Source: Methanotrichaceae archaeon (GTDB lineage: Archaea; Halobacteriota; Methanosarcinia; Methanotrichales; Methanotrichaceae). From it: a stretch of 64,000 nucleotides of DNA. This document shows positions 13,106 to 30,065 of this stretch, piece by piece (position 1 is the stretch's first letter; the number at the start of each line of letters is the position of its first letter). The notes under the pieces are model-generated. The model did no database searches, had not been told where the DNA came from, and worked only from the letters and a program-made list of their open reading frames with translations. Position numbers and translations under genes: made by a program. The stretch covers positions 23,966 to 87,965 of the forward strand of contig CAWDNX010000003.1 in NCBI GenBank assembly GCA_963803855.1. The letters run 5' to 3'.

Positions 13106-13400
13106 GCTTTCGCCTTCTGCTGGCGGACAAAGTGGTCCCAATTGCAGCTGCTCCTCCAGCCGGTTTTGCCGGTCGAGCAGCCTGCTGACCACGCGCAGCA
13201 TGGGATCGGGCAGAAGGGCATAGTTCAGATCCGTTCCTGTGGCAGAGCACTAGGGCTCGGCAATTCTTCCCGGCACACCCACTACGGTGGCTCCGGCAGG
13301 GACGGGCCGAACCACCACGAAGCTTGCGCCGATCTTGGCACCTTTTCCCAGGAGGTTGAAGTGCTCAACCTTGGCCACCACGGGCAGACGCTACATCCGG
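13106..13400 (-). pseudogene. cysE: Remnant of serine O-acetyltransferase C-terminus joined to a short cysteine-synthase-like fragment
   Basis: Minus-strand translation VVAKVEHFN / GKGAKIGASFVVVRPVPAGATVVGVPGRIAEP*..LPDPMLRVV. Confidence 0.6.
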
Positions 13401-13412
13401 GCGCATTCTACC

Positions 13413-14620
13413 GTGACTTCCTCCCCACCCTAAAGGATGGGGCTTCCTGCTTCGACGAACCGGCGCTTACTTTGGGCATAGGCCAAAGCCGGAGGTCGGT
13501 TCTCCACAGGCTATCCCCCTCAGTCCGAGGGTTCTGATTATCATGCTTGCATTGAGATCTCTGCAGATTATTAGACCACACCGAGAGCAGATATGCACCC
13601 TATCTTTTAGCTTCTTGGGCACATTCTCACCACAAGCGGAACATCTTTGGCTAGTGTTATAGGGATTAGCCAATACCACGGTTTTGCCAGCTCTTTCAGC
13701 CTTGCTCACCGTGAAGCGTATTAGCTTTCCTCATGATGCAAAAACTCCTCGCGAAGGTTGGTTACCCTCTTTGCGATCCTGGCCAACTTTGTCTGGGCTT
13801 TCTTCCGGTTATTGGAACCGAGCTTCTTGCGGTGCAACGATTTATTGGCAGTTCGATTCTTCTTCTCAGCTTGGACATGGTACTTTGGATAGTCGAAGTA
13901 CTGACCGTCCGAAGTTACGGCTGCATGAGTGATGCCAAGGTCTACTCCGATCGCGGTCTTGGGCTTCAGCTTGGTTGGATTCTCAAGCTCGGTCGTAAAT
14001 ATGACATACCATGCATTTGTCTTATCTCGCTTGATGGAACAGGTTTTGATCCTGCCCACAATAGGCCTATGCTCAAAGGTTCTAATGCCGCCGGAAATTT
14101 TTGACAGTATCAGCCTGGTGCCGTTCAGCTTAAATCCTGACTGAGGATAGGTAATCGAGCTGTAACGGTTAATGGACTTGAACCGGGGGTAGCCTTTTTT
14201 TCGAGCCCCTTCGCGAACTCTTCGAAAGAAGTTATCAAAGGATTTCTGAAGCCTCCTCAAGACATCCTGTTCGACCTGAGAATGGACGGCATTGAGGTAT
14301 GGATTAGACTGTTTCTCAAAGACCAGCAAAGCTGCCTGATCTTCGTAAGATCGGGTTATGCCTTCGCGTTCCCAGGCATTTTTGCGATCTGCAAGTGCTT
14401 TATTCCAAAGGTGCCTGCAGGTATCCAGCGTTAAGGCCAATTGTGCTTCTTGTTGCCTGTTTGGGTATAGCCGGAACTTGTAGGCCGTTTTCATATTAAC
14501 TTAATGTGGTCGGTCCATGCTATATTAAGTCAATTAGTGCGCAGCGAAAGTAATCATGACAGGGGTACGATTCATCCCCAGCCTGAAGTCTGGGGTCTTC
14601 TCTACCCCTGTACCCCAACA
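13413..14620 (-). mobile_element. tnpB: IS200/IS605-family (IS1341-like) tnpB-only element; tnpB 13467-14494 internally deleted
   Basis: MKTAYKFRLYP, GVDLG, zinc finger, DLNAS; right-end hairpin ending in TCAC at 13413; left-end hairpin 14559-14611. Confidence 0.88.
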
Positions 14621-14650
14621 AGATAAATTATTGTTGCCCGAATGCATATT

Positions 14651-15405
14651 ATGTTCTTCATCTTGGAACAAGAGAGTGACAAGGCCAGGCGGGCCCGACT
14701 GCCAGGCTATCGCTCGGGGGCACAGGAGGCCGATCGGGCCTGAGATCCAGGTGGCGCATGCCTGCGGACTTTGCAGCTTTTCGGGGCGCTGGATTTTGGA
14801 AATGATAACGATTCGCGATTACTATTAGCGGTTAATTATAACCATACGACCAATGATCCCACCACAGAGGCTCAGAGCGCACAGAGACTTTTTTTAGCTG
14901 AGATCAAATGCAGTCCTCCGGCTTGACGATCCCTGCGCACTACCGGAAGCAGCGCCGGACAGCCGCAAGGGCGCGCTCTGCGCCGCTCGGGTCCCGGCTG
15001 CTGCTCGTGGCCGTCGCCCATGATCCGGGCCGTTCGGGCCTGGCGGCGCGGTCGTCGGGCCGGAGGCCAGTTGGGCCGAAGTGACTGGTGGAGAGGACTC
15101 CGGCTGAGGCAATTTTCAAGGTGCTGGGTTTTAGGAAGCTGTGGTGATTTGCGGTTACTATTAGACGATAATTATAGCCGAACAATTACGAATATTACCG
15201 CAGAGGCGCAGAGCACGCGGAGGACGAACGAACGGAGACGACTATTGCTCAGGAGCAGTGCACTTTTTAAAATGTGATTGCTGCCGATGCCCATGGTCCC
15301 GGCTGCCGCCCGTGGGCCCAGCCTGGGCGGCGATGTCATCAGGGCGGGATGGATTGCATGACAAGCGCTTGCATTAGGGGGCAGGGGTCCGGTTGGGCAT
15401 GACGC
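14651..15405 (+). repeat. Two tandem units of the modular repeat (cores at 14816-14844 and 15152-15180)
   Basis: GGAGGCCRRTCGGGCCTGAG motif, palindromic core and ACCRCAGAG triple repeat; homologous to later copies. Confidence 0.85.
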
Positions 15406-15496
15406 CTTTCGATGCAATTTGTCTTTTAGTTAACTTTTAATAGCATGCTGTACATAAATTAACGGGAACCGAATAATAATTACTATGGGGTTAATC

Positions 15497-15754
15497 ATGT
15501 CTGTAGAGGTTTCTGTAAGCTCGGCCAAAAAGAATCTCGAAGATATTCTAGCGAAGCTATCTCCCGGTGAGACAGCAACTCTTATCGGCCCTGAGGGCAG
15601 ACCCTTGGCTGTACTGGTTCCACTAAGATCTTCTGAGGATGAGGCAGCGGAAATTGACTGGGATGCAGAGTGGCAGGCCTTGGCCCATGAAATCGATTCC
15701 GCATGGAAGAGCGAGAAGAGCGCTTTGGAGATTCTTGCCGAGATGAGGAGATGA
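15497..15754 (+). CDS. Phd/YefM-like antitoxin
   Basis: VSVSSAKKNL..L..GE...GRPLAVLVP; ATGA overlap with the PIN gene. Confidence 0.7.
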   Translation: MSVEVSVSSAKKNLEDILAKLSPGETATLIGPEGRPLAVLVPLRSSEDEAAEIDWDAEWQALAHEIDSAWKSEKSALEILAEMRR

Positions 15755-16194
15755 AACTGACAATTGATGCCAGCGTCTTTGTCTCTGCAGCCCGACCTTC
15801 TGAAAAACAATACCCTCTGAGCTACAGGTTTCTGCATAGGGTGAAAGGATCAAAAATATTCTGCCCCACTCTTGTGCTTGCCGAGTGTGGGGCGGCTATT
15901 GCCAGGCCGACTGGAGACTCGCTTTTATCCGGGAGGCTGGTCAATCTCATAAAGCATTTCCCAGGGATGACACAGGTTCCTCTGGACCTGCCTCTTGCCC
16001 TTCGTGCAGCAGAGATTGCCATTGAAAATCGCCTTCGTGGCGCGGATGCCGTTTATGTTTCTGTTGCTGAGGATTTCGAGGCCGTTTTGGTTTCATGGGA
16101 TGGAGAGATGTTAGAACGCTGTCCGGAATCAGTGCTAGCGATGAGCCCTGAAAAATGGCTGGAAAACGCCCCAAGGACTGGAGGGCGGGAATAA
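15751..16194 (+). CDS. vapC: VapC PIN-domain toxin
   Basis: IDASVFV, LAE, LRGADAVY, LVSWD. Confidence 0.88.
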   Translation: MKLTIDASVFVSAARPSEKQYPLSYRFLHRVKGSKIFCPTLVLAECGAAIARPTGDSLLSGRLVNLIKHFPGMTQVPLDLPLALRAAEIAIENRLRGADAVYVSVAEDFEAVLVSWDGEMLERCPESVLAMSPEKWLENAPRTGGRE

Positions 16195-16235
16195 GATCAT
16201 TTCAGGGAGAATCTTCGGTTAAGCAATACTTGCAC

Positions 16236-16375
16236 GCTACCGGCAGCAACGCCGGGCAGCCGCAGGGCCGCGCTCTGTGCCGCTCGGGTCCCGGCTGCTG
16301 CTCGTGGCTAGCCGCCGAGGGGCCGTCCAGCCAGGTTGCGCGATCGTCTGGGCGAGCTGGCTTGTCTGACAAGAA
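16236..16375 (+). repeat. Partial repeat unit (GC-rich distal part only)
   Basis: CTACCGGCAGC..GCCGCAGGGCCGCGCTCTG..CGCTCGGGTCCCGGCTGCTGCTCGTGGC matches 14940-15011 and 18625-18697. Confidence 0.8.
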
Positions 16376-16429
16376 CCCTCGGTAGGTTGACTGTCAAGGC
16401 CGAGGCCGCCAGAATGATGGTGAACCGTC

Positions 16430-16645
16430 CTATTTTATGAGCCTGCAAAAATCATCTTCAGTTATTCCCAATTGCTTGAGAATTTCGTAGAAAAGCCAGC
16501 TTCCAATCTCGCTATTGCCATGTATTGGAATCGTAGTCGCTCGGCCATTGGGATGCTTCCATCTGGCGTGGCTGCCTTTTTGCCTCACCATCTGGAACCC
16601 GAGCTTCTTGGCCGCTTTCTGCAGGTCCTTAGCTTTGGCAGGCAT
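16430..16645 (-). CDS. hicA: HicA mRNA interferase toxin
   Basis: LGF..VRQKGSH..HP.G..TTIPIH. Confidence 0.92.
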   Translation of the reverse strand: MPAKAKDLQKAAKKLGFQMVRQKGSHARWKHPNGRATTIPIHGNSEIGSWLFYEILKQLGITEDDFCRLIK

Positions 16646-16856
16646 GAGTAGCTTTTACTTCTACATCTGATGGAAGCATGCGCCCTTCTTCTCTGTACTC
16701 TTCCTCGATCATTTCGAAGACGTTTATCAACTCGGTTTGTGCCTCCTCGGAAGTTTGGCCCAAGGCATGACAGCCCGGAATTGCAGGTACGTAGGCCACG
16801 AATGTACCATTGTCTTCGGGACGAAGTATTACCGTGTAGTCATAAAGACGTTTCAT
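16629..16856 (-). CDS. hicB: HicB antitoxin (short form, upstream of hicA)
   Basis: YTVIL..EDNG.FVAYVPAIPGCHALGQT.EEA. Confidence 0.9.
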   Translation of the reverse strand: MKRLYDYTVILRPEDNGTFVAYVPAIPGCHALGQTSEEAQTELINVFEMIEEEYREEGRMLPSDVEVKATHACQS

Positions 16857-16974
16857 TGGAAATCACTTAATCCCTATTTGCATATAATACTACCCAATGG
16901 TGAAGTGTACCCACTGTGGTGATTAAACGTTGCACTTCTAGGCGGGCCCCGGTCTTCCCAGAGGAAAGCCGCCC

Positions 16975-17565
16975 GTGGGCCATCCGAACTTGTGATGCGG
17001 TCGTCCGGGCGGGCTGGCTATCCTGGCAAGCGCTCGGACAAGGGGGCAGGGGGCCGGTCGGGCCTGAGAGCCATGTGTGCTGGCCTCCGGCAAGGGGCGT
17101 TTTCCGGGGCACAGGATTGGGGAAACAATGGCCGTTTGTTAATAATATTTGCAGATAATTATAACCATACAACTAATAATCCCACCACAGAGGCACAGAG
17201 CGCACGGAGGACGAACGGACGGAGACGACTATTGCTCTGAAGCAAGTGCACTTTTTTGAATGTGGTTGCTTTCGGCTCTCGGCTACGTTCGTGGCTCGCT
17301 GCCATCGAGCCGGACTGGCTTGCAGCGATTTTGTCAGGGCGGGCTGGAGGCCAGTCGGGCCTGAGGGCCAGGAGGAGCTGGAGGAGCTGGACTCCGGCTG
17401 AGGCAATTTTCAGGGTGCTGGGTTTTGGGAAGCTGTGGTGATTTGCGGTTACGATTAGACGATAATTGTAGCCGAACAATTGCGAATATAACCGCAGAGG
17501 CGCAGAGCACGCGTAGGACGAGCGAACGGAGACGACTATTGCTCAGAAGCAGTGCGCTTTTTTTA
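16975..17565 (+). repeat. Two tandem repeat units (cores at 17139-17167 and 17446-17474)
   Basis: 17390-17560 nearly identical to 15095-15268 and 19365-19540. Confidence 0.88.
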
Positions 17566-17660
17566 TGGATCTGCAGACTGCTTGACTGAAGAGATCTTCA
17601 ACCTAGCCAAAGCTTAATGAATGATCTCTGCTATTATTATGAAATGGAGCATGAATCTAA

Positions 17661-17921
17661 ATGAGCGCTAGGACTCTGAAGATCCCGGAAGAGATTGTCA
17701 ATGCTCTTCGGGTTCCACCTGATGATATAGAATCTGAGCTTTACAAAGAGTTAGCTCTGGCACTTTACCTGCGAGGGATGCTTTCTTCTGGAAAAGCCTC
17801 TGCTCTCAGTGGCCTGACTCGTCTTCAGTTCGAAGATCTTCTCGGTCAGCGTAAAGTCAAGCGGCACTACGGGGAAGAAGAGCTGCAAGAGGATCTAAGA
17901 TATGCCGGGTGCAATCAGTGA
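17661..17921 (+). CDS. UPF0175-family antitoxin-like protein
   Basis: ELALALY..G.LSSGKA..L.GLTR..F..LL...YGEEELQED. Confidence 0.85.
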   Translation: MSARTLKIPEEIVNALRVPPDDIESELYKELALALYLRGMLSSGKASALSGLTRLQFEDLLGQRKVKRHYGEEELQEDLRYAGCNQ

Positions 17922-18408
17922 TTCTTCAACGCTGATTCATCTGGCAAAGATCGGGCATCTGCACCTCTTGCGTGAGTTTCATAAAAAGATTTTCATAGCA
18001 CCGGCCGTTTGGAAAGAGGTAGTGCAGGAAGGTCGAGAATGGCCAGGCTCCTCTGAGGTAGATCAGGGAAGGCAAGCTGGATGGATAGAAGTCATTGATC
18101 CGGCAAATCGACCTCTTATCAATCTTCTACAAAAGGATTTGCATGAAGGCGAATCCGAGACCATAGCTCTCGCTGTTCAGCTAACTGCAGATGTTGTATT
18201 TCTGGACGAGAGCGAGGCTAGAAGGACAGCCAGAGTCTATGGATTGAACATAACCGGCGTGATTGGTATCTTGATCAGAGCCAGGCGAGAAGGAAGAATA
18301 CCATCTCTCCGAGAAGAACTTGATAGGCTAAGAAATGATGCCGGTTTCTGGATAGGGGATGATGTCTACAAAAAGGCCTTGCACGCTTCTGGAGAGGATA
18401 AAGACTGA
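17902..18408 (+). CDS. DUF3368 PIN-like protein
   Basis: ISDSSTLIHL, GESETIALA, LDE..AR, TGVIGIL. Confidence 0.88.
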   Translation: MPGAISDSSTLIHLAKIGHLHLLREFHKKIFIAPAVWKEVVQEGREWPGSSEVDQGRQAGWIEVIDPANRPLINLLQKDLHEGESETIALAVQLTADVVFLDESEARRTARVYGLNITGVIGILIRARREGRIPSLREELDRLRNDAGFWIGDDVYKKALHASGEDKD

Positions 18409-18439
18409 AAAGAATAAGCCAATCGACCGTGGTTGATGC

Positions 18440-18740
18440 CGGCGCTCGTGCAAAGGGGGGCAGGAGGCCGGTCGGGCCTAAGAGCTAGGTGTGCTGGCCT
18501 TCGGTTCGCTATTACTATTAACGGATAATCATATCCAGCAACTACGGACCAAACCACAAAGGCACGAAGGCACAAAGGACGCACAAAGATTCGATGCATT
18601 CTACAGCTTTGCGATTCTTGCAGGCCACCGGCAGCAGCGCCGGGCAGCCGCAAGGCCGCGCTCTGAGACACTCGGGTTCCGGCTGCTGCTTGTGGCCGCC
18701 GCCCGTGGGCCGGGCCGGTCGGGCCTGGTTTCGGGTGGCG
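18440..18740 (+). repeat. Repeat unit, CAAAG subtype (core at 18509-18537)
   Basis: 18500-18588 nearly identical to 19709-19798. Confidence 0.85.
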
Positions 18741-18833
18741 CTTTCGTTCGGATAAGGAGATTTTTCGGCGCCGGCTAAGAGCTAGGAAACCAGAAACCGC
18801 TAAAAGGACGAATCTGAATTATTTAAATCAAAC

Positions 18834-19070
18834 TGCGTGCGGCCACCCCACCCTAAAGGGATGGGGTATGCTTCGGGCCGCACGCACGCCCGGTTAGCTG
18901 GAGATCAGAAACCATCGAGTCTTCTTTGCCTGGTCTCCCTGATCTGTGCAATTGAAACGCTGCTTTCGAATTCCAGCTTATCGGTTTAAGTGAGCACAAA
19001 TAACGTGCGAGGGTTCACTTCATCCCCAACCTGAAGGTCGGGGTATTCGTGACCCTCCGCACTCCCGATG
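18834..19070. mobile_element. Non-autonomous IS200/IS605-derived palindromic element (PATE/MITE-like)
   Basis: Hairpin with CCCCACCCTAAAGGGATGGGG (as at 13423-13442) and hairpin TTCATCCCCAACCTGAAGGTCGGGGT (as at 14571-14596); no ORF between them. Confidence 0.7.
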
Positions 19071-19250
19071 TAATCATATTCTATTGAATCTTCAAGATTG
19101 GTTTTATTGGCAAATGCTTCCTTTGAATCAACCTTCTCTTTGGTCACCGATTGTGGATACGGTTTGGATTGGCTGACTGACATGAATGGCCTCTCTATTT
19201 ATGGCATGTTGCTTCTTAGAATATATCCCTTTGCCAGGAATAAAATTTTT

Positions 19251-19920
19251 ATGTTCTTCATCTTGGGACAGGCAGTAGCAAGGCCAGGCGGGCCAGCATG
19301 CACGCGCGCAGGCTCGCCCTCGGGGACGCAGGAGGCCGGTCGGGCCTGAGGGCCAGGTGGAGCTGGACTCCGGCTGAGGCAATTTTCAGGTTGCTGGGTT
19401 TTAGGAAGCTGTGGTGATTTGCGGTTACTATTATACGATAACTATAGCCGAACAATTGCGAATATAACCGCAGAGGCGCAGAGCACGCGGAGGACGAACG
19501 AACGGAGACGACTATTGCTCAGAAGCAGTGCGCTTTTTTGAATGTGGTTGCTGCCGGCACTCGGGTCCCGGCTGCGCTCGTGGCCACCGCCTGTGGGCCG
19601 GGCCGTCCGGGCTTGCGGCGATGTCGTCAGGGCGGGCTGGATTGCCTGACAAGCGCTCGCACTCGGGAGCAGGGGCCGGTCGGGCCTGAGAACCAGGTGG
19701 CGCATGCCTTCGGCTCGCTATTACTATTAGCTGATAATTATATCCAGCAACTACGGACCAAACCACAAAGGCACGAAGGCACAAAGGACGCACAAAGACG
19801 CTTAAAAATAATCTCTGTGACAGATCCCATATCATCAATTGTTGCGGCCCTTTCGCCAGGCGGGCCCGCATGCACTAGGCGCTCGTGCTCGGGCACGCAG
19901 GAGGCCGGTCGGGCCTGAGG
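19251..19920 (+). repeat. Leader copy plus two tandem repeat units (cores at 19422-19450 and 19718-19746)
   Basis: Starts with ATGTTCTTCATCTTGG as at 14651; same modular order. Confidence 0.88.
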
Positions 19921-19974
19921 AACAAGAGCAGGCTCAGCCTGGATGAGGTAAATTATTCAATGAGTTAAATAAAC

Positions 19975-20202
19975 CTAGGCTGCAACGTACTGCCGGATCT
20001 CGACTTGTGCTCCTGTGTTTGCTCTTTCCTCAGCATCCTTAAGCAGCTCGGCTGTAACCGCCTCACTGATATACGCCTCTCCGCAATTGGGGCAGACTTG
20101 AGCAGGAACGCATTTTACTACCATTGTCAAACAATCTCGCTCAAAGGTAATTGTGGTTGTTCCGGGCTTAGTGGATGCCTTTTTACAGATAACGCATTTC
20201 AT
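19975..20202 (-). CDS. YgiT/MqsA-type zinc-finger antitoxin
   Basis: MKCVIC...VPAQVCPNCGEAY; TAATG coupling to the upstream gene. Confidence 0.88.
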   Translation of the reverse strand: MKCVICKKASTKPGTTTITFERDCLTMVVKCVPAQVCPNCGEAYISEAVTAELLKDAEERANTGAQVEIRQYVAA

Positions 20203-20483
20203 TAAATCCTCTTCCTGCATTCCAGGTCCCATTCCGAGGGATCGGGCTCGTAGACTGTGATTACTATTATCTCCTCGTCGAGGCAATTGTTGGCTGCTAC
20301 TACATGAATCAGGCGACCCTTATAACTTCCCAGGATCAGGCAACTTGGGTAGGGTGTGTCATCTGGATATTCTTCAATCACCTCTCCGGTCTCCAGCACA
20401 TATCGAACTTCTTCTGCGATGACTTTCCGCTCGAACATCCGCTGGACAGCGTGAAGACGATAGGTGATTTTTTCGTTACTCAT
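20202..20483 (-). CDS. DUF4258 (RelE/MqsR-like) toxin
   Basis: HAVQRMFER, GEVIEEYPDD.PYPSCLILG, HVV, ITVYEP. Confidence 0.88.
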   Translation of the reverse strand: MSNEKITYRLHAVQRMFERKVIAEEVRYVLETGEVIEEYPDDTPYPSCLILGSYKGRLIHVVAANNCLDEEIIVITVYEPDPSEWDLECRKRI

Positions 20484-20569
20484 AGCCAGGCCATCATTAA
20501 TTTTAGCTGTCGTCTCATCCCATAAACTTTCCTGTCTAGAAATCACTTGACTGCTGCTCCTCGTAACTC

Positions 20570-21125
20570 GCCGCTCGTGGGCCCAGCCAGGGCGGCGATG
20601 TTGTCAGGACGGACTGGCTTGCCTGGTAAGCGCTCGTGCCCGGAGGCATGGGGCTGGTCGGGCCAAGATCACGGGTTCACGCGAAGGCGCATAGGCGCGA
20701 AGTTCCGATGAGAAAGGATAATTTTTGCCTGAGCCCTCGGGCCGCGTCGGTGGAGCCGTTTCTAGGCAAAGGCCATCCGGGGCCACAGCCGCCGTCCGCC
20801 AGGCGGGCCCGCATGCACGCAGGTGCTCGCACTCGGGATCGTGAGGCCGGTCGGGCCTGAGGGCCAGGAGAGCCTGCCTCCGACAAGAGCAGTTCTCCTG
20901 GCGCGGGATTTTTGGAAACAGTGGCCGTTTGTTAATAATATTAGCTGATAATTATAACCAGACAACTAACGATCCCACCACAGAGACACAGAGCGCACGG
21001 AGGACGCACAGAGACTTTTTAGCAGAGAGATCCGATGCAGTCCTCCGGCTTTACGATCCTTGCTGGCTACCGGCAGCAGCTCCGAGCAGCCACAGGGGCC
21101 GTGGTTGCTGCCAGCGATAGGGTCC
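20570..21125 (+). repeat. Variant unit (CGCGAAG triple at 20678) plus a full unit (core at 20932-20960)
   Basis: 20912-21060 matches 17121-17215 and 14834-14930. Confidence 0.85.
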
Positions 21126-21182
21126 AAGGCTCTTGCTCCTGGTCGCTGCCTGTTGGCCGAGCGGTCTGAGCTCAAGCAGACA

Positions 21183-23276
21183 TCAGCCAGGCTTGACCCG
21201 TGCGCACGATCTGGCCCAATATTCGAGATTTGTTTGTGATTTTGGCGTTTCGTGATTCGGAGCCAGAACCTTAAATCCAATATTCTTGAGACGATCTAGT
21301 TGAGCTTCTTCCTTCTCAGACGGATTAGGGATAGCCCATATAATCAGCCTCCTGGGACGGGAACTTGCGACATACGCTAGTCGAGCTGCTTCGGAAGCGG
21401 GATCATCAAGCCACTGTGTCCAATAACCGTCATTTGTTCCGCTCTTATTACGAGATGAGACTAGCATCAGTGCTTCCAATGTTTCCCCTTTTACGTTGTG
21501 AATTGTCGTTATCCGCAAAGGTGTTTGAGCAGAGGAATAAGATAACAAACCACTCAAAACTTGATCTTTGCTTTTACCCTTTGGAGCGGGAAAGTCACTC
21601 GCAACCAACTGATGAAAAACACAATCTGACAAAGATGCTCCGAAAGTGTTGGCGCTAGTGCTTAGGTATTGATGTAATCTGTTCCTAGTGATTTTTGTCC
21701 AATTGGTCCAAGTTTGCTCTAAGTCCGAGAGTATCTCATCTTGGCAACATTCGCTCAAGACTGCAGCCAAAAACAGGCGCCATATCATGGCAGAATTCAC
21801 AGACTCAGGCCGATAGTAACTCCGAGAATTGGTCGATTCCCTAAGGAAGAATTTTTCAGAGACAAAGCGTCCAAATAATTTGAGCGCTTCCCTTGTCGCT
21901 TGTCGACACCCCGTCTTCCAAAGGTGGATGGCCATTGCCAGTCTTTCTTGATAATTCTCGATTTGCCCGCGGTCTGCAGGTCTCATCCTGGAAACGTTTG
22001 CCCGACTCCTGGTTACGACAGTAGAACATTTTTTGTCGATTCCTAATTGTTCCAGATAGTCACAAAACCAATCCGGCGATTTCATCAAATTTTTTTTCTC
22101 GAAAGATATGCAGACACATGGGCTCTCTAGTTGTTTGCTTTCGTGTATAGACTTGACGTTGTCTTTTTTGCCAACTAGAGCGTCACACAGGTCGGCAATC
22201 GGTTGACAGTTCCGATAGTTGTTCGACAGGGATTGGGTGCCGAATTTCCGTTCCTGCGTGTATTCCTCCACTTTTTCGGGTGCGACTTTTTTGAATTCAT
22301 AGATGGCCTGATTGAGATCACCAACGAAGTGTAGTGCAGTTCCATGCGATCGCATTTTGTCCAGTATCTGCATCTGTATCCAAGAAAGGTCCTGGCACTC
22401 GTCCACAATGATAAGAGGAAAACGAAGAGAAAGGAATCTTGCAAGCCCGGGTCTCTTTGACAGGAGTTTGTGGCAAATACACTCAATATCTTGATAAGTG
22501 GCAAAACCATTACTCAGGAATGCATTCTTCTTTTCTGAAAAGCCTTTGCGCATGTAATCCAATGTGAGCCATTCTTTATCTCGCCGAAATTGAGCAAATG
22601 CAGGATAATCATAATAGTCACTATCTGGTAATGGTGCGCTTCGTGGACCAGGAATAATAATATCCCATCTCTGTTCTTCAGGATCCCATTGGATATTATT
22701 CACGTATAGTGGCATTGATGCGCCATTACCATGCAAAAATGATGTATCCAGCTTGTATGCATTTAGCCAGCCATCTATTGAAGTTGTGTCAACGAGTCGA
22801 ATAGAGCGATCTTGATCCTTCCCATCGTAACCTGTTATAATGTGGGCAAAAGGATGTGCGATATATCCATGCAACCAACGATCAATGGTTCCAATGAAAT
22901 GTGGAAATCCAATCTTCGCAACTTCACCGAATTGACTTACGCGTTTCTCGATGACCTCGGCTGCATTATTGGTGAACGTCAGAACGGCGATGCCTCCTGG
23001 TGTCTTAGCCCACTTCGACATTTCGTAAGCAGCCTTCATCCCGATAACTTCTGTTTTGCCGCTGCCAGGACACGCTTTGAGAAAAACGCAATCCTCTATT
23101 GATGACAGTACATAGTCCAGTTGCTCGTTTGAGTTCCGCGCAATTCGGCAGGTTTCACACTCGTTGCACAATGGATTGGTCGCCCCATTAGTGGCACGGC
23201 ATTCCGATGGCGATATCGCAGGTGATTTGCCACAGATAGAATGAGCAAGAACTTCTATTTTTTCATCACGATTCAT
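21183..23276 (-). CDS. gajB: UvrD-like helicase, GajB-like
   Basis: ACPGSGKT, TFTNNAA, DECQD, VGDLNQAIYEF, TIHNVKGET, YVASSR; likely start MNRDEK overlaps the gajA stop. Confidence 0.8.
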   Translation of the reverse strand: MNRDEKIEVLAHSICGKSPAISPSECRATNGATNPLCNECETCRIARNSNEQLDYVLSSIEDCVFLKACPGSGKTEVIGMKAAYEMSKWAKTPGGIAVLTFTNNAAEVIEKRVSQFGEVAKIGFPHFIGTIDRWLHGYIAHPFAHIITGYDGKDQDRSIRLVDTTSIDGWLNAYKLDTSFLHGNGASMPLYVNNIQWDPEEQRWDIIIPGPRSAPLPDSDYYDYPAFAQFRRDKEWLTLDYMRKGFSEKKNAFLSNGFATYQDIECICHKLLSKRPGLARFLSLRFPLIIVDECQDLSWIQMQILDKMRSHGTALHFVGDLNQAIYEFKKVAPEKVEEYTQERKFGTQSLSNNYRNCQPIADLCDALVGKKDNVKSIHESKQLESPCVCISFEKKNLMKSPDWFCDYLEQLGIDKKCSTVVTRSRANVSRMRPADRGQIENYQERLAMAIHLWKTGCRQATREALKLFGRFVSEKFFLRESTNSRSYYRPESVNSAMIWRLFLAAVLSECCQDEILSDLEQTWTNWTKITRNRLHQYLSTSANTFGASLSDCVFHQLVASDFPAPKGKSKDQVLSGLLSYSSAQTPLRITTIHNVKGETLEALMLVSSRNKSGTNDGYWTQWLDDPASEAARLAYVASSRPRRLIIWAIPNPSEKEEAQLDRLKNIGFKVLAPNHETPKSQTNLEYWARSCARVKPG

Positions 23277-25095
23277 CCGGGTTGCCCCCACAAGCCCAAA
23301 TGATTGCTTTGCATATGTACCATGGAACAACAATAATTTCTTCATGCGAAGCCAGTCGGGCAGCCAACGCTTGTGCAAACTCGCCTTTGTCAATATGTTC
23401 GAGCAAATACATTGATGCATCCGCACGATTGCCTTCCTCTGCGATGTTCCAGTCTTTCAGGTTGAATTCTTCATAGCTACTTCGGATAGGTCCATTGGTA
23501 TCCACAAGTGACAATGCCACAGGGATCAACACTTTCAAGTTGCTTCCTTCCATGGCAAGATCATATTCGAAGGTCTTAAGCGAGCCTGAATACAACCTAG
23601 ACCACTTTGATTTTTTTACGATCTCCTTAAGTTTAAGCGCAGGGTTCGTCCCAGGCACGGGATTAGATGGGGTCGGCTTTGAATCTGTTAAAGGATCGTT
23701 GTCCGTAATTCCTGCACAACGCACTGGAATGCTCTCAGAACCATTTTCGTCAAGGTCAGCAAATAGCTGCATAAAATGCTCAAAGTATATGCCATTCATA
23801 TTGATGACCGACACCCCGCAATCCTCCAAAGTTTCCGGCAGTTCATCGTATTTATCCAGCACAATCTTCGCAAGTTCAGGCAATAGCATAGCCTCCGCAA
23901 TACCCTCAACGAGAATAATCCCTTTGGCAAATAGCAAGGTAGACTTCGTGGTGTCGAGCCATCGATTCAGAAATGCCTTGCTGTGATCGTTTAGACCACA
24001 AGAACACAATGCAATAGCCTTTGGCGTCTTCTTATCCATGACACATAGCTGGATTACGGTATCTAGGGAAACTGATGAGGCGAGAACGGGAGAATGAGTT
24101 GTGACGATGACTTGGACATTTCCATTTCGGGCGGTACTTTCAAGGTACTTGAGTAAACGAATTTGGAGTTGAGGGTGCAAGTGGGCCTCAGGTTCTTCAA
24201 TCAGAAGCACACTAAAATAATCTTCTCCTGTATCAGAGAGTTCGGCGAGGACAGTGGCTAGATAGAGCAGGTTGTTATAGCCAAGACTGTTTTCCACGAG
24301 CGTCCTGAAATCTTCTGAAGAAGCAACGTTAATGTCTGGGAAAAAAAGCAGCCTAAGGCTTTCCGCGATCCTGTTGAAATTAACTTCGCTGAATTGGATA
24401 TGTGTATCCTGGCCGAAGATTGGACCAAAAGATTCGCGCAGTCGTGCCCGAATCAGCCCGTTTGCCTTGGCGATTACTCCATCCTCATCTTCTGAAAGTT
24501 TCCTATTAAAGTCGCGAACATTCTCTTCAATCGGGAGAAGCTCGCCTTTTTTCTTTGCCTCCTGAATTGCTTGACGGTGAAGGTTTTTCAGGAGTCTTGC
24601 CAACCTGGAAGACCTTCCTTCAGATAGTCTGGCTTCTGCATCGCGAAGAGGTGGAAGGTAAACGCAGTTGATCGAATCGAACAATTCCCACTCGAACATG
24701 CTTGCTTGCGAGACTCCGCCCCAAAGTGTTCGTTTGTAGTGACCTCGATGATTCTGTTTGTTATCCACAAGCAATGTCAGCGAGGCATCTCCATTCTCAT
24801 CCGACCAGGGCAAGAAAGCGACATGCTCCTTATCAGACAAGTCGGCGAATCCTGCTCGAAGACGAAAGGGTTGCGCCGATTTTAGAGAGCGATCAAAGGG
24901 ACGGTGGAAATCAGATTCGTTGACTGGTGTGTGGCCAAATTCATCCTCTCTGAGAAGAAGGCGAATAGCGTCAATGATAGCAGTTTTACCCGACGCGTTT
25001 TCTCCCACAATCACGTTCAAGCCTTTTTGTAAGGAAACGGAAAATGGTTCCCGAAACCCCTTATAGCCCTCAATATGGAGTTCACGAAGATACAT
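23266..25095 (-). CDS. gajA: OLD-family ABC-ATPase/TOPRIM nuclease, GajA-like
   Basis: GENASGKT, SLGYNN, IEEPEAHLHPQ, TTHSP, ILVEGIAE, ITDND. Confidence 0.88.
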   Translation of the reverse strand: MYLRELHIEGYKGFREPFSVSLQKGLNVIVGENASGKTAIIDAIRLLLREDEFGHTPVNESDFHRPFDRSLKSAQPFRLRAGFADLSDKEHVAFLPWSDENGDASLTLLVDNKQNHRGHYKRTLWGGVSQASMFEWELFDSINCVYLPPLRDAEARLSEGRSSRLARLLKNLHRQAIQEAKKKGELLPIEENVRDFNRKLSEDEDGVIAKANGLIRARLRESFGPIFGQDTHIQFSEVNFNRIAESLRLLFFPDINVASSEDFRTLVENSLGYNNLLYLATVLAELSDTGEDYFSVLLIEEPEAHLHPQLQIRLLKYLESTARNGNVQVIVTTHSPVLASSVSLDTVIQLCVMDKKTPKAIALCSCGLNDHSKAFLNRWLDTTKSTLLFAKGIILVEGIAEAMLLPELAKIVLDKYDELPETLEDCGVSVINMNGIYFEHFMQLFADLDENGSESIPVRCAGITDNDPLTDSKPTPSNPVPGTNPALKLKEIVKKSKWSRLYSGSLKTFEYDLAMEGSNLKVLIPVALSLVDTNGPIRSSYEEFNLKDWNIAEEGNRADASMYLLEHIDKGEFAQALAARLASHEEIIVVPWYICKAIIWACGGNPDES

Positions 25096-25199
25096 TTGGA
25101 ATCTCCTTTTATTCTATGCTCTCACCAGTTGCTCCGCTGATACAAGCGTGAGGTTAAAGAGAAAAGGATTATGCTGTCCATCTCATGGATCACTCCTGT

Positions 25200-25232
25200 G
25201 CCGTTCTCTGCGCTTCGTGCCCTTCGTGGTGA
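25200..25232 (-). repeat. Inverted copy of the triple short repeat (CACCACGAAGGGCACGAAGCGCAGAG)
   Basis: Reverse complement resembles 18553-18580 and 15197-15223. Confidence 0.6.
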
Positions 25233-25316
25233 AAGTCCGCAAATCGCAGGTTTAAAACTCGTTGTGATCTACTCTGCAAATTGCCCTTTGGCTCGGGCTC
25301 GACTGCAAGAGTTAGC

Positions 25317-25604
25317 TCATCCCCATCGAGTGTCTGCCACGCTGGGGCTTTGAATGCCATTCTCTCCCGCCGCCAGTGGCTTTGCCAGCAGCTTTCCCGC
25401 GAAGAAGTCCTTCATTATCACATCGATCTCTCTTGATATCTCCAGCGTGTATTCGACCTCGCCGCAGGCATCGCAGATAAGAGCCGGAACATCTTTGATA
25501 ACTACGATCTCATTTCCAACCCTGGCCATAAAATCATGCCTGCCTTCACGCATCTTGCCTGAGCAACGGCAGCAATCATGGGCATCCGAATTCATCTGCA
25601 CCAC
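25317..25604 (-). CDS. Orphan YgiT-type zinc-finger protein
   Basis: CCRC...IVVIKDVPALICDACGE; paralog of 56446-56727. Confidence 0.8.
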   Translation of the reverse strand: MVQMNSDAHDCCRCSGKMREGRHDFMARVGNEIVVIKDVPALICDACGEVEYTLEISREIDVIMKDFFAGKLLAKPLAAGENGIQSPSVADTRWG

Positions 25605-25639
25605 CTCATTCAGATATATGATAAAATATCGCTAAAGGA

Positions 25640-26296
25640 TCAATATGATCTCTTTAGAAACTCAATGACACCATTCAATTTTCTGTCCAAATATAAATAT
25701 AGATTATCAACATTAATACGAATAAAATGCTTTTCGGATTTAAATGGATCGTGCTCCAATCTTTTTATATTATCTATATCTAAAAAACTAAAATAATCCT
25801 CCGCAATCTCTCTATAGCTTCCATCATGTTTGATGAGTTCATGAGGTCTCCATTGTTTGAAGGCCCATGTACTTGGTGCTTCTAGTATTTGATATATTAT
25901 AAGCGAAAAAATAAAAATAGGTGCAATCAAGACAAAAAGACTAAAAGGTATCCTCTCATTTAGCAAAATAAGAGATATATAAATTAAAACAAAGGATGAT
26001 ATAAAAAATAGATATAGTAAAGCTCTAAGAAACCTGTTAAAGCGTATCCGATTCCACTGGTCGGTATATATTTTTATCCAGAACTTGGTTTCTTTATAAT
26101 TTAATTCTTTATTTGCAATTTTTATAATAAGATTATCTAATATATTTGAAGCTTGATTTATTTTTCTATCTATTAAAAATAATAAAATCGAGGCAACAAT
26201 ACCCACTAATGCAAGTACCCCACCAAATACGTAGGAAAAGAGATCTGAATAGTCCTTATCCTCGCATAATATAAATTCAATCATATAAATCAACAA
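25640..26296 (-). CDS. AT-rich hypothetical membrane protein (about 3 TM segments)
   Basis: Three hydrophobic stretches; 11 bp downstream of the dcd-like gene. Confidence 0.65.
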   Translation of the reverse strand: MLIYMIEFILCEDKDYSDLFSYVFGGVLALVGIVASILLFLIDRKINQASNILDNLIIKIANKELNYKETKFWIKIYTDQWNRIRFNRFLRALLYLFFISSFVLIYISLILLNERIPFSLFVLIAPIFIFSLIIYQILEAPSTWAFKQWRPHELIKHDGSYREIAEDYFSFLDIDNIKRLEHDPFKSEKHFIRINVDNLYLYLDRKLNGVIEFLKRSY

Positions 26297-26307
26297 AAAA
26301 GGAAGCT

Positions 26308-26772
26308 CTATCTAAGCCATGTAGCCGAATCGTACAAGCTTTCTACTTTTCCATCAGTTTTCGCAAAGGCTACATATGCTAATGTGGCATTTTTTTCAAT
26401 CTTTTTTTTCCCGCTTAAACATATTGCATGCATAATTAAATGTCCTTGCCAGCCAGGATGAATAAAACCTGGGAAAACCATGATGCCCCTTGATGCGAAG
26501 TCCTGCGATCCAAATAATACCCCTATAATATCGTGGTCACAATCGCTGTTTGGGACACGTTTGAGATCAACTTCTTCCTTAGACCAAAATGTAATATGAG
26601 CAGGATAATCAAATCCACCAATAAAGCCACCTTCATAGTACTTAGCTACATTGAAATCAGTTTGCCCCTCTTCATATTTTTTTGCGATATGCAATTTCAT
26701 AGTATTTGCTTTTAACTCGTAATCAGGTCTAAAAAATCTCAGTTCCTTTATTTGCGTGTCAGTCAAAAACAT
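26308..26772 (-). CDS. Divergent dCTP deaminase/dUTPase-fold protein
   Basis: MFLTD.QIK N-terminus; G....ASRGI..FPGFIHPGWQGHL. Confidence 0.65.
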   Translation of the reverse strand: MFLTDTQIKELRFFRPDYELKANTMKLHIAKKYEEGQTDFNVAKYYEGGFIGGFDYPAHITFWSKEEVDLKRVPNSDCDHDIIGVLFGSQDFASRGIMVFPGFIHPGWQGHLIMHAICLSGKKKIEKNATLAYVAFAKTDGKVESLYDSATWLR

Positions 26773-27002
26773 AATACAACCCTTTGATGACTTTATTATA
26801 TGGGCTTTTGGGCTTGTTATTACTTAAATTTTACTGAAAATCTCCTTGTCAGGTATTCCAAGAAACCTCATCTAATTAATGACGACCACGAAATCTCACA
26901 GCTACGAACCCAATCGAAAGTTGCAGGTATTCGAATCAAAACCAGAGAACTACTAGTGCGGATCTTCCAGAATAACGCTGTAGATCTGCATTTTTCGCTA
27001 AA

Positions 27003-27058
27003 TTCACTAGATATAAATCGCTGGCCTCCCCGGCCCCGCCTGGCGGCTCTCGCCCTTG
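27003..27058 (-). repeat. Imperfect duplicate of the leuS 3' end
   Basis: Matches 27212-27267 with about 7 mismatches in 56 bp; encodes KGESRQAGPGRPAIYI*. Confidence 0.85.
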
Positions 27059-27111
27059 TTCCGCCCCCGGCTCATTCGCCTTGCAGCAGCTTTCCCGCGC
27101 TATTTAAACCG

Positions 27112-27157
27112 CCGTCTCCGTGTTCGTTCTCTGTGCGCTTCTCTCGCCTCTGTGGTT
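27112..27157 (-). repeat. Inverted copy of the ACCACAGAG...GAACACGGAGACG repeat segment
   Basis: Reverse complement aligns with 17184-17229. Confidence 0.75.
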
Positions 27158-27212
27158 TTATTCCGTCGGCCCCAGGTACAGCACCCGAGGCCAACAGTCT
27201 TCAGCCATCTCT

Positions 27213-30065
27213 TCACTCGATATAAATCGCCGGTCTCCCCGGTTCCGCCTGGCGGCTTTTGCCCTTGGGGTCCTCTCCCGCCTCGTCTGCCGAGCAGATC
27301 TCCACCGGCACGCCCATGGCCAAAGCCAAGTACGCCTTCTCCCTGGAAAGCGTCTCGAACTCGTCCAGCCCCAGCGCCTCTGCCGAGAGCGAGTGAGCCG
27401 CCTTGGCCAGCTTCATGGCATATTTGGGCATGTCCTTCTTGTGCGGTGCGATCAGCGGGGATGACATGGCTTCTTTCATGAAAGGCCCCATGTCTGCTTT
27501 CTTGGACTCTAGAAAGTCCAGGAACATCCTTAGCATCTCCTTCTTCCAGGCTGGCGAAGTGTAGAGCGTGATCTTCGCAGGCGTGGCTTTGGTGACGCTC
27601 ACAATCTCCTGCACGTCCTTCAAGGTGCGCTCCAGCAGATCCTCCGCCTTCTCCGCCTGCGGATCGATGAGAGCCGCATCCGCCACCGGCCACTGGGCCA
27701 ACGATGCGTAGCCCTCTCCCAGGCCCGCCGCCCACAGCTCCTCGCAGACGTGGGGCGTGAAGGGCGACATCATGCGCACCCAGGCCGACAGGACCGCGCG
27801 AAGCTGGCTCTTGCCCCCGCGCCTCTGGTACCAGCGCAGATCATTGAAGAGCAGGTAGAAGGCGTTCTGCAGCGCCCTTCTGGTCTGGATGTTTTCCAGT
27901 GCCTCTGTGGCCTCGGCGATGCGCCTTTGCAGCCGGGAGAGCATCCAGCGATCGATGAGCGTTTTCTCCGCGCATTCGTCGATGCTGCTGTCGGCCAAAA
28001 TCTCCCGTGCTAAATTGTAGAACCTCTCCATATGGGCATAGGTGGCCTCTACTGCATCATTTCTCCAGTCCACGTCCGCCGTCCCTTCCGCATTGCCCAG
28101 GATGTAGAGCCGCGTCACATCCGCCCCGTTTTCAGCGACGGCCTGGCGCAAAGTGAGAATCGGCCCCTTGGACTTGGACATCTTCTTGCCCTCCAGGGAG
28201 ACGAAGCCGTTGACGGCAATGGCCTGGGGCCAGAGCCTCTCCGGGAAGATGGCCACATGATGGTAGAGGAAGAAGAGCAGGTGGTTGGCGACCAGGTCCT
28301 TACCAGAGGTACGCAGATCTACCGGATACCAGTAACCGAAGTCGTCGTGTATCTTCTGCACCGTCTCCTGCGGGATGCCCGTCCGGGCTGCAATGCTGGC
28401 GGCGTCGCCGTTATTCATGAAGACGTACTCGAAGAACTCAGCAGGGAGCTGATCTATCTTCATCCCGGCGTTCACATACTTGGCCAGAATGTAGTAGGCC
28501 ATGTAAATGGTGCTGTCACCCAGCGACTCGATGAGCCATTCCTTGTCCCAGGGAAGATGAGTGCCGAGTCCCTTCCTGCGGGCGCAGGCCTTGTCCTTGA
28601 GCCAGTCCACCTTGTTTATGAACTCCACCCGAAACTCCTCAGGTATGATCTTCATGCCTGCCAGGCAGCGCAGCACATTGGCCTTCCACTCCACATCGGA
28701 GTACTCCAGGAACCACTGGTCTCGCACCATCATGATGACGCAGCGCGTGCCGCAGCGGCAGATGACCGGCATCTCGGAAAACTCGTAGAAGATCTCGGCC
28801 ATGCCCTGCTCCATCAGATCGGCCAGGAGAACGTCCTTGATTTTGGAGACGGCGATTCCGGCGTACTTGCCCGTGTTGGCCTTGAGAACGCCGTTATGAA
28901 ACTCGCGCCGGTAGACCATTTTAGTGGCATCCTCTGCCTTGGGGTCGTTCTGGTCTAAGACCCTCAGCTCGTTCACGGCTTCAACCGCGGGCAGCTCTCC
29001 ATATCCGGGCGACTCAATCAGGGAGATGAATTTGATGGCCCGCAGGTCCTCGGTGATGCCGTAATTGCTCAGGTCTTTGCCGTACAGATCCTTGAGCGCC
29101 AGATAATCGTAAGGTGCATGAGCCGGAACGGACATGACGATTCCTGAGCCGTTGTCCGGTTCCACGAATCCTGCGGGCAGCACGAGAACCTCGGTGCCCG
29201 TCAGCGGATTAGTGACCCTCTTGCCGATCAATTCCTTTCCCGAGATCTCCCCGATCAAAGCTACGGTCCGGTCTGTGAAGGTCAGCTTTTCGTAGGCCTC
29301 TTTGGATACCACCCAGGTCTCCTCGTTCACTTTGGCCAGGACATAATTAACATCCGGGTTGAGCCAGAGGTTGACCACTCCGAAAACAGTCTCCGGACGC
29401 AGTGTGGCGCAGGGCAGGATTTTGTCGCCCATTCGGAACTTGATCAGGGAAAAGTCCATGATGGTGGCATCCTCGCCCTTGAGAATGTCGTGATCCTCCA
29501 CCGGGTTTCGATCATGCGGGCACCAGCGCACGGGATGGCTGCCCTTGACCACATAATCCAGGCGGCGCAAAATTCCGTACTGCCACTCGATGAACTTGCT
29601 GTAAGCCGGATCGGTGGTGGTAAACTCCCGCCTCCAGTCGATGGAGTAGCCGATGGACTGCATGGCCGCCTTCGCCTGGCGACGGAAGTAGAGCACAATC
29701 TTCTCCGGCGTGTTTAATGAGGAGAGCTCCTCTTCAGGAATGCCGTGCAGCTTGGTGTAAACGTCCCAGATCAGTGGATCGCGTTTGGCAATGAGCTCGG
29801 ACAGACCGACTATGGGCGTTCCCGTGGCATGAAAGGCCATGGGAAAGAGAACGTTCTTGCCCTGCATGCGCTTGAAGCGCGCCACGGCGTCGCCAATGGT
29901 GAAGGTGCGCGTATGCCCGGCATGCAAATTTCCATTGAGATAAGGATAAGGAATGGTTAAAAAGAACTTCGTTCTGGAGTCGGGCTCGGGCTGAAAGACC
30001 GCTTTGTCCTCCCAGGTCTTCTGCCACTTGGCCTCGATCTCCTTAGCAGAATAATTTTCCAGCAA
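27213..30065 (-). CDS. leuS: Leucine--tRNA ligase (archaeal type)
   Basis: PYPYLNGNLHAGH, KMSKS, editing domain, C-terminal PGRPAIYIE. Confidence 0.97.
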   Translation of the reverse strand: MLENYSAKEIEAKWQKTWEDKAVFQPEPDSRTKFFLTIPYPYLNGNLHAGHTRTFTIGDAVARFKRMQGKNVLFPMAFHATGTPIVGLSELIAKRDPLIWDVYTKLHGIPEEELSSLNTPEKIVLYFRRQAKAAMQSIGYSIDWRREFTTTDPAYSKFIEWQYGILRRLDYVVKGSHPVRWCPHDRNPVEDHDILKGEDATIMDFSLIKFRMGDKILPCATLRPETVFGVVNLWLNPDVNYVLAKVNEETWVVSKEAYEKLTFTDRTVALIGEISGKELIGKRVTNPLTGTEVLVLPAGFVEPDNGSGIVMSVPAHAPYDYLALKDLYGKDLSNYGITEDLRAIKFISLIESPGYGELPAVEAVNELRVLDQNDPKAEDATKMVYRREFHNGVLKANTGKYAGIAVSKIKDVLLADLMEQGMAEIFYEFSEMPVICRCGTRCVIMMVRDQWFLEYSDVEWKANVLRCLAGMKIIPEEFRVEFINKVDWLKDKACARRKGLGTHLPWDKEWLIESLGDSTIYMAYYILAKYVNAGMKIDQLPAEFFEYVFMNNGDAASIAARTGIPQETVQKIHDDFGYWYPVDLRTSGKDLVANHLLFFLYHHVAIFPERLWPQAIAVNGFVSLEGKKMSKSKGPILTLRQAVAENGADVTRLYILGNAEGTADVDWRNDAVEATYAHMERFYNLAREILADSSIDECAEKTLIDRWMLSRLQRRIAEATEALENIQTRRALQNAFYLLFNDLRWYQRRGGKSQLRAVLSAWVRMMSPFTPHVCEELWAAGLGEGYASLAQWPVADAALIDPQAEKAEDLLERTLKDVQEIVSVTKATPAKITLYTSPAWKKEMLRMFLDFLESKKADMGPFMKEAMSSPLIAPHKKDMPKYAMKLAKAAHSLSAEALGLDEFETLSREKAYLALAMGVPVEICSADEAGEDPKGKSRQAEPGRPAIYIE

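Follow-up and report, generated by a model that had tools for sequence, protein, structure and literature searches.

The 64,000-nucleotide stretch analysed here (the window; Methanotrichaceae archaeon, assembly GCA_963803855.1, contig CAWDNX010000003.1, positions 23,966 to 87,965 of the forward strand) carries an array in which co-oriented non-coding repeats separate small toxin–antitoxin (TA) and defence gene cassettes. This cassette platform is real and genus-wide in many Methanothrix, the genus to which named database matches would assign the array-bearing genome. In operation it resembles sedentary integron arrays or sets of pdif modules, yet it fails the tested defining features of both. 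As to what shuffles the cassettes, we lean, if only slightly, towards host homologous recombination between co-oriented repeats with survival of addictive TA modules, rather than a dedicated integrase.

A reading of the window from its sequence only (the sequence-only reading) had placed a repeat-delimited array at 14,651–27,267. This holds for 14,651–21,170, where the repeats separate TA gene pairs and gene-less units, but full repeats cease at ~21,170 and the remainder (21,183–27,267) is terminal cargo without them. A 20-mer of the repeat, searched at up to three mismatches, matched eight times in the window, always on the plus strand (0 in 100 shuffles), and 28 times genome-wide (0 in a block shuffle) in the source genome, labelled G000, which is 76% complete with 51% GC. 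Its 13-bp core, the A box, is GGCCGGTCGGGCC (GGCC-GGTCG-GGCC, with GGCC arms and a 5-bp spacer). Twelve A-type boxes, selected by context out of 24 plus-strand core matches, lie on the plus strand at 14728, 15065, 15387, 17052, 17349, 18466, 18713, 19334, 19674, 19903, 20652, and 20845; the remaining matches are mostly degenerate versions within the GC-rich chain described below. With eight AT-rich cores and nine CAGAG-type triplets in 14,651–21,170, boxes and cores all on one strand, the count agrees with the roughly 12 boxes, 8 cores and CAGAG/CAAAG triplets read before. Units follow the order A box, linker, payload, GC-rich D–E (or F) chain, next A box, where the payload is a gene pair or a gene-less AT-core/CAGAG element. 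Gene-less units of ~300 bp, of several subtypes and often in tandem, were seen across 14,651–21,170 as had been described. The AT core is palindromic only weakly (mean best 11-bp arm match 7.35 vs 6.1 shuffled), not strongly.

What had been read as one modular repeat shares a unit order, but comprises two elements. The AT-core/CAGAG part is a separate dispersed element with 110 profile matches genome-wide, often in head-to-head pairs, whereas the GC-rich chain with its A box is rarer (43 and 24 profile matches) and is clustered in arrays at several G000 sites. Four GxxExxY nuclease genes or remnants lie among the CAGAG copies of G000. The A box forms an imperfect palindrome around an asymmetric spacer, each position being conserved at ~90% or more, and the F, E, and D-end motifs resemble degenerate copies of it. 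The GC chain itself has 70–75% GC in a 51% GC genome and 8% A on its top strand; its A/T positions change about twice as often as its G/C positions, as GC-biased gene conversion would predict.

The scaffold is largely restricted to one genus. The 20-mer was found in 31 of 58 other genus genomes, 1 of 46 other family genomes, and 0 of 196 genomes of other families, and the whole D-E-A chain had a match in 39 of 58 and 1 of 46 genomes of the first two sets, respectively. An exact 23-mer gave 23 matches in 185,579 species genomes, assigned to Methanothrix (17), Methanotrichaceae (2), and uncultured Methanosarcinales (4). Neither a plasmid BLAST nor two scans of viral contigs for exact patterns gave a match (0), which is weak evidence of absence for carriage by viruses or plasmids.

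Polarity was assessed in 45 stretches from 28 genomes, with genes called by a custom dicodon caller that missed some. Forward and reverse copies stood at 168:2 for A, 66:0 for D, and 124:0 for E; the A-box majority set the orientation of 20 stretches (leuS or manual choice set it for the others), so what informs here is how small the minority is. Most cargo families kept a single orientation as well (f0 26/26, f3 12/12, f4 11/11, f6 and f7 10/10, f9 and f10 9/9), the YgiT gene near leuS being an exception (8:2). Cassette order is near-random and indistinguishable from shuffles: 89 distinct neighbour pairs among 114, vs 92.8±3.3 in 2000 shuffles (39 stretches, 152 cassette copies, 20 families). 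About 20 cassette families recur across 25–28 genomes. Of 17 families, seven were located at more than one of five labelled chromosomal sites. Many of the 60 cargo proteins scanned are HicA/HicB, PIN, MNT-HEPN, DUF4258/MqsA, MazF, TumE, SIR2, or STAND proteins; for 25, Pfam gave no match.

Within G000, 31 of 86 TA-like open reading frames (ORFs) lie within 1 kb of a GC chain, compared with 63 of 2,685 called genes, and 31 of those 63 genes are TA-like, an enrichment that is biased upward because the search seeds came from arrays. For unbiased Pfam sets, compared by hand, the numbers within 1 kb are 5 of 22 PIN and 3 of 17 HicB genes. More than half of the TA-like ORFs (52 of 86) are over 1 kb from any repeat, and most TA genes of G000 are therefore outside arrays.

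Related genomes and metagenomes carry other versions of the same locus. G062, the closest relative, agrees in its left flank at 95–98% identity and has leuS on the right; it shares the first box, HicBA (99%), and DUF4258 (97%), without the other five modules. The G062 leuS tail is ~86% identical, though the far flank is at 95–98%. In one public run, contigs place Phd-VapC and DUF3368 beside different neighbours, and contigs of four runs, which cannot show circles, contain other cassette neighbours; in run X2, one contig joins window position 25621 to 27213 with 353 other letters between. In 126 comparisons, cassettes were closer than the core gene by >5 points 43 times and further apart 7 times, but the core comparator was mostly the leuS tail beside the array, so the gap merely hints at between-species transfer. 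To the left of leuS arrays, gene content varies from genome to genome, which recombination between arrays would lead one to expect. The leuS array of G024 (L008), for instance, starts ~1 kb downstream of rpa-radA, with other left neighbours in other genomes; such variation suggests rearrangement at arrays. Terminal cargo beside leuS or ilvC varies too (L033, L041, L010, L042, L034), including Gabija, SIR2-domain proteins, an nSTAND3 NTPase, a TPR protein, and an 862-aa matchless protein, all candidate defence genes.

Repeat comparisons indicate where exchanges fall. Payload-specific sequence begins just after A in most families. Among A-site pairs from different stretches, at least 200 bp were shared on the right in 47, on the left in 24, and on both sides in 0. 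No pair keeps 200 bp of homology on both sides of any of six anchors, and breaks also occur at B, C, D, E, and F; the repeats are mosaic at every module. Core sequence variants follow neither neighbour (3 shared vs 69 discordant, and 0 vs 24). A column-wise linkage test on 78 aligned junctions gave 21 and 20 pairs and was too noisy to place the crossover.

The clearest single event is a deletion. A metagenome scan gave three matches, two of which (L138 and L139) are 99.9% identical to the G062 locus (L034) minus exactly 1,039 bp, the HicBA cassette. In the hybrid unit left behind, the alleles are those of copy 1 through the A box as far as +24 and those of copy 2 from +186 onwards, which places the crossover in a perfectly identical tract of 161 bp that covers linker, AT core, and CAGAG and lies outside the A box. 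The third contig (L140) has the copy-1 allele at +186. This exact loss, together with the 89 distinct neighbour pairs, bears out the expectation that cassette content and order vary between strains with breakpoints in the repeats. The repeats are co-oriented, enriched beside TA genes, and hold the breakpoints inside them, the reverse of the outcomes that the sequence-only reading had named as fatal to itself.

A one-directional repeat scaffold separates the small TA and defence cassettes, and we propose that RadA-type homologous recombination and gene conversion probably excise, re-insert, and swap cassettes between arrays; RadA is present. Recombination between co-oriented copies of 70–100% similarity would pop out circles or exchange repeat-flanked fragments, keeping polarity while scrambling order, and addiction would favour TA pairs among the survivors. 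The A box would serve as the start of homology for most cassettes and may act as a hotspot. First capture of a new gene looks like a rare one-off replacement of a CAGAG payload. Host recombination accounts for fixed polarity, random order, between-site exchange, mosaic repeats, empty units, the deletion mapped above, and the lack of a recombinase, and survival of addictive modules would explain the TA bias. Efficient gene conversion in Methanococcus maripaludis and oligoploidy in Methanosarcina acetivorans, as given in the available text of PMC10536925, lend this some basis, which comes from organisms other than Methanothrix.

Several observations weigh against host recombination as the sole agent. 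Breaks lie within 30 bp of the A core in 36 of 47 right-sharing and 17 of 24 left-sharing pairs (43 of 58 and 17 of 25 with same-stretch pairs included), although A-site pairs are not independent and the counts therefore describe rather than test. Homology resumes past the break in 0 of 49 cases upstream (control 24/24) and 3 of 24 downstream (control 49/49), which marks these as exchanges and not local mutation. Shared tracts often span the whole chain right of a cassette and stop just past A, which uniform recombination does not predict; host recombination does not explain this break preference for A, nor the strong conservation of the box. The MNT-HEPN family occurs in both orientations (6:6). 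As for the HicBA deletion, assembly collapse of the 161-bp repeat could mimic the loss, L138 and L139 may not be independent, and the crossover window holds the AT core and CAGAG element, so that it also fits a nuclease trigger. Finally, since most genomes are incomplete metagenome-assembled genomes, an enzyme may be unbinned.

The sequence-only reading had supposed a recombinase acting in trans, for which our searches gave no backing. IntI (TIGR02249) was above cut-off in 0 of 59 genus genomes, and no tyrosine recombinase was found in G000, in G080 (97% complete, with 16 boxes), or in G205. A Xer-type tyrosine recombinase is present in 23 of 24 other genus genomes checked, not adjoining arrays; only 1 of 42 recombinase loci (44 stretches) has a box in its neighbourhood, and that gene adjoins a tRNA-like remnant. 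Serine resolvase was detected in 0 of 5 genomes, reverse transcriptase in 4 of 59, and IS110 in 4 of 5, G080 being the genome without it. The attC core motif is RYYYAAC...GTTRRRY, and 0 core pairs 40–150 bp apart were detected on either strand of 14630–21200. Folding revealed no conserved single-strand hairpin (z −1.15 to +0.30 for 10 strands), and the top-strand consensus fold of 44 copies reached −0.34 kcal/mol with 0 of 6 pairs compensatory. In a test for pdif-type sites, 14 of 117 AT cores had at least 9 of 11 arm matches vs 0 shuffled, but 3–8 bp spacers gave a similar excess.

Other candidates were set aside in turn. A XerA-like recombinase beside a folded-site array fails for want of a fold and with a single box in the 42 loci, beside a tRNA-island-type integrase. 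A G-quadruplex hotspot scored 1.23, the same as shuffled sequence (1.23). A diversity-generating retroelement is at odds with the scarcity of reverse transcriptase (4 of 59 genomes) and with the similar variation rates of A and T positions (0.15 and 0.13) among copies that are nearly identical. Frequent 1-bp indels, judged by eye, led us to reject the idea that the GC chain is a degenerate reading frame. The array is no CRISPR array either, its units being 250–500 bp long, 60–90% alike, and irregularly spaced. Nor are the units simple miniature inverted-repeat transposable elements (MITEs), given that no inverted pair of unit ends appears among the longest 25 of 43 inverted repeats and orientation stands at 168:2. 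The earlier judgement that the repeats are neither CRISPR nor attC-like and lack the terminal inverted repeats of insertion sequences (IS) is upheld by the same data.

Were a dedicated enzyme at work, the arrays would be a Methanothrix integron analogue built from new parts, in which an enzyme either as yet unnamed or of GxxExxY type cuts the 13-bp box or CAGAG, captures TA and defence genes, and reshuffles them among arrays and species. We regard this as possible and hold it tentatively, and each of its two forms taken singly as unlikely. In the first, a GxxExxY (PD-(D/E)XK) nuclease would cut the AT-core/CAGAG element and the breaks would trigger inter-unit repair and occasional capture of a foreign gene replacing the element, so that the nuclease drives the array. 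Most gene-less units do carry that element, four GxxExxY copies of G000 sit among CAGAG repeats, several gene cassettes occupy the element's payload position, and the HicBA-loss window includes it; direct repeats flank 10 of 133 CAGAG clusters vs 0 of 357 control sites, several of them being the array repeats themselves. However, the gene is present in just 14 of 58 genus genomes and does not follow the box, which occurs in 9 of 14 genomes with it vs 22 of 44 without. Array-rich G082, G056, G015, and G109 lack it, and a CAGAG copy that lacks a GC chain is found within 1 kb of only 3 of the 86 TA-like ORFs.

The other form, in which an as yet unnamed site-specific enzyme recombines at the A box and homologous recombination merely blurs the junctions later, would be a true integron analogue, and we judge it somewhat less probable still. 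It draws on the start of payload-specific sequence right after A, the accumulation of breaks at A from both sides, the single spacer shared by 28 of 231 GGCC-N5-GGCC sites of G000, and the box-like F, E, and D-end motifs. It must contend with the IntI, tyrosine recombinase, resolvase, reverse transcriptase, and IS110 results above, with a clean HicBA deletion that crosses over outside A, and with core variants that track neither side. A role in gene movement could also be denied altogether if ordinary MITE- or repetitive extragenic palindromic (REP)-like elements and TA genes simply amass in permissive islands. The 110 dispersed CAGAG copies, the IS elements and a MITE also inserted in the array, and the 52 TA-like ORFs far from any repeat speak for such clustering. 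It is nonetheless very improbable and largely refuted already by the strict co-orientation and fixed cassette polarity across sites, the family-specific junctions into the repeat chain, the exact cassette loss between repeats, and the TA-like nature of 31 of 63 genes near the GC chain.

Host recombination acting on homology blocks has precedents. In polymorphic toxin loci and silent-cassette antigenic variation, host recombination exchanges variable cassettes of fixed polarity through shared coding homology, which alters a protein tip; in the arrays described here the homology is non-coding, and complete TA operons change places among several sites. REP elements with their RAYT (REP-associated tyrosine transposase) genes offer a comparison for the CAGAG/GxxExxY element, which in these arrays is the gene-less payload in a larger GC-rich genus-restricted scaffold, with nuclease presence not tracking arrays. 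Known TA and defence cassette arrays are integrons and Xer/dif modules, both of which require a site-specific recombinase. In Methanothrix, a major genus of acetate-using methanogens, several such arrays draw on a single reshuffled pool of cassettes and have none of either system's components. Should host recombination be enough, an integron-like platform can arise from non-coding repeats as scaffold together with addiction, and such a platform would escape attC- or integrase-based tools. The arrays also point to where unknown defence genes lie (Gabija, genes with SIR2 domains, STAND genes, and pairs without annotation such as f11/f12), and chromosomes may break and rearrange at them.

The integron- or pdif-like platform proposed by the sequence-only reading thus stands in its fixed polarity, shuffled order, and movement between sites, but not in its machinery, there being no IntI, attC, or conserved hairpin. 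Sedentary integrons and clusters of attC sites lacking integron-integrases (CALINs), including archaeal ones, resemble the arrays in their tandem cassettes, co-oriented repeated site, TA and defence cargo, and lack of an adjacent integrase (10.1101/2022.02.06.479319). Tandem cassettes of fixed polarity and variable order are a feature that the Methanothrix arrays share with them. Unlike integrons and CALINs, they lack attC core motifs, a conserved hairpin, and a genus IntI; their scaffold is a 150–300 bp mosaic, several arrays per genome draw on one cassette pool, and crossovers are not at one base. Acinetobacter pdif modules, in the available text of PMC6449649, likewise hold small accessory modules, TA pairs included, between repeated sites in varied arrangements, but the Methanothrix arrays are chromosomal, no 28-bp 11-6-11 site is established in them, and two array-rich genomes have no Xer-type recombinase. 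A term search of the main text of Ghaly et al. (10.1101/2022.02.06.479319), outside which the supplementary genome lists fall, found no mention of Methanothrix or Methanosaeta, and a literature search that left out most subscription papers found no description of such arrays.

Along the window, the array opens after an IS605-family insertion on the minus strand (13218–14627; tnpB remnant 13721–14494), a passenger at the left edge that is absent from G062. Both large arrays of G000 start with an IS605 tnpB gene (window 13218–14627 and C3:278433–279407), absent at the same G062 sites. The end of the window's IS605 element has a weak Rfam HgcC match (13400–13534; E 0.014, below gathering score), and no RNA family reached gathering score in an Rfam scan of 13000–28000. 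The first repeat unit (14651–15061, plus strand) comprises an f11-type cassette tail, an F box at 14683, the A box at 14728, an AT core at 14831, CAGAG at 14863, and a GC-rich D chain; 14623–14763 is identical to G062. A gene-less unit follows (15062–15383, plus; A box 15065, AT core, CAGAG, D/E chain). Cassette 1 (15384–16380, plus) has a degenerate A box at 15387, a Phd-like antitoxin (15485–15754, weak Pfam match), PIN/VapC (15751–16194), and a D–E chain; its family occurs seven times, in plus orientation every time. Cassette 2 (16381–17048, minus), with HicB (16629–16856) and HicA (16430–16645) and then an E chain, matches at 99% identity the G062 copy, which L138/L139 lack.

Two tandem gene-less units (17049–17563, plus; A boxes 17052 and 17349, AT cores, CAGAG) lead to cassette 3 (17564–18462, plus), which encodes UPF0175 (17661–17921) and DUF3368/PIN (17902–18408), and to a further gene-less unit (18463–18709, plus; A box 18466, AT core, CAAAG type, D). 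The next element, from A box 18713, is a minus-strand relic of a two-gene f11/f12 cassette without a Pfam match (18710–19330), interrupted at 18825–19074 by a multi-copy MITE, presumably of IS605 type from its hairpin ends as judged by eye, with the f11 gene lost. The modules named before are all present, but this seventh, MITE-broken cassette (18,713–19,360) had been overlooked. Two gene-less units (19331–19899, plus; A boxes 19334 and 19674, F box 19854) include a complete D-E-A chain of 75% GC (19545–19690). Cassette 5 (19900–20648, minus; A box 19903), 97% identical to its G062 copy, holds a YgiT/MqsA-like gene (19975–20205), DUF4258 (20202–20486), and a D/E chain, and two final gene-less units (20649–21170, plus; A boxes 20652 and 20845) end in the last D chain, which closes the array.

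Terminal cargo begins with Gabija on the minus strand (21183–25095; GajB 21183–23273, GajA 23266–25095), which also follows a D–E chain in G024 and G082. From Gabija to leuS, the only repeat sequences are CAGAG remnants in reversed orientation and a second copy of 56 bp from the leuS 3′ end. A minus-strand segment without full flanking repeats (25190–26772) contains a reversed CAGAG remnant, a lone YgiT-type gene (25317–25595), an AT-rich (32% GC) membrane-protein gene, and a dCTP-deaminase-like gene (weak match). The gene calls made earlier (Phd-PIN, HicA-HicB, UPF0175-DUF3368, MqsA/YgiT-DUF4258, GajA/GajB, YgiT, and, as a weak match, the dCTP deaminase) were confirmed. The leuS-end duplicates (27003–27058 and 27212–27267) surround a reversed CAGAG element and form the right boundary (27003–27267), a layout found likewise in G062 and G024. 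Further along the window, repeat families at 55437–55807 and 59983–61315, with ~102-bp and irregular spacing, are probably TPR-type coding repeats.

Elsewhere in G000, dense CAGAG-only clusters occupy a glycosylation gene region (C1:256000–265000 and C1:294000–316000; L005 and L006) and hold GxxExxY genes and remnants as well as TA fragments; partial duplicates of glycosyltransferase 5′ ends also lie there in tandem, separated by CAGAG pairs. At C1:224400–227600 (L002), repeat units separate an acylphosphatase-domain gene from its partial split copy, and array polarity flips near C1:221–223 kb. A single HicBA cassette between two A boxes lies beside fdh at C1:523900–524800 (L075), where G062 is ~4 kb longer; this looks like a collapsed array with a deletion that extends into the ABC-transporter gene next to it. 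At C1:250396 (L078), a solitary A-linker-CAGAG unit runs over a chromosomal gene's stop codon, as it does in L093, the same in two genomes, and is a possible seed of a new array.

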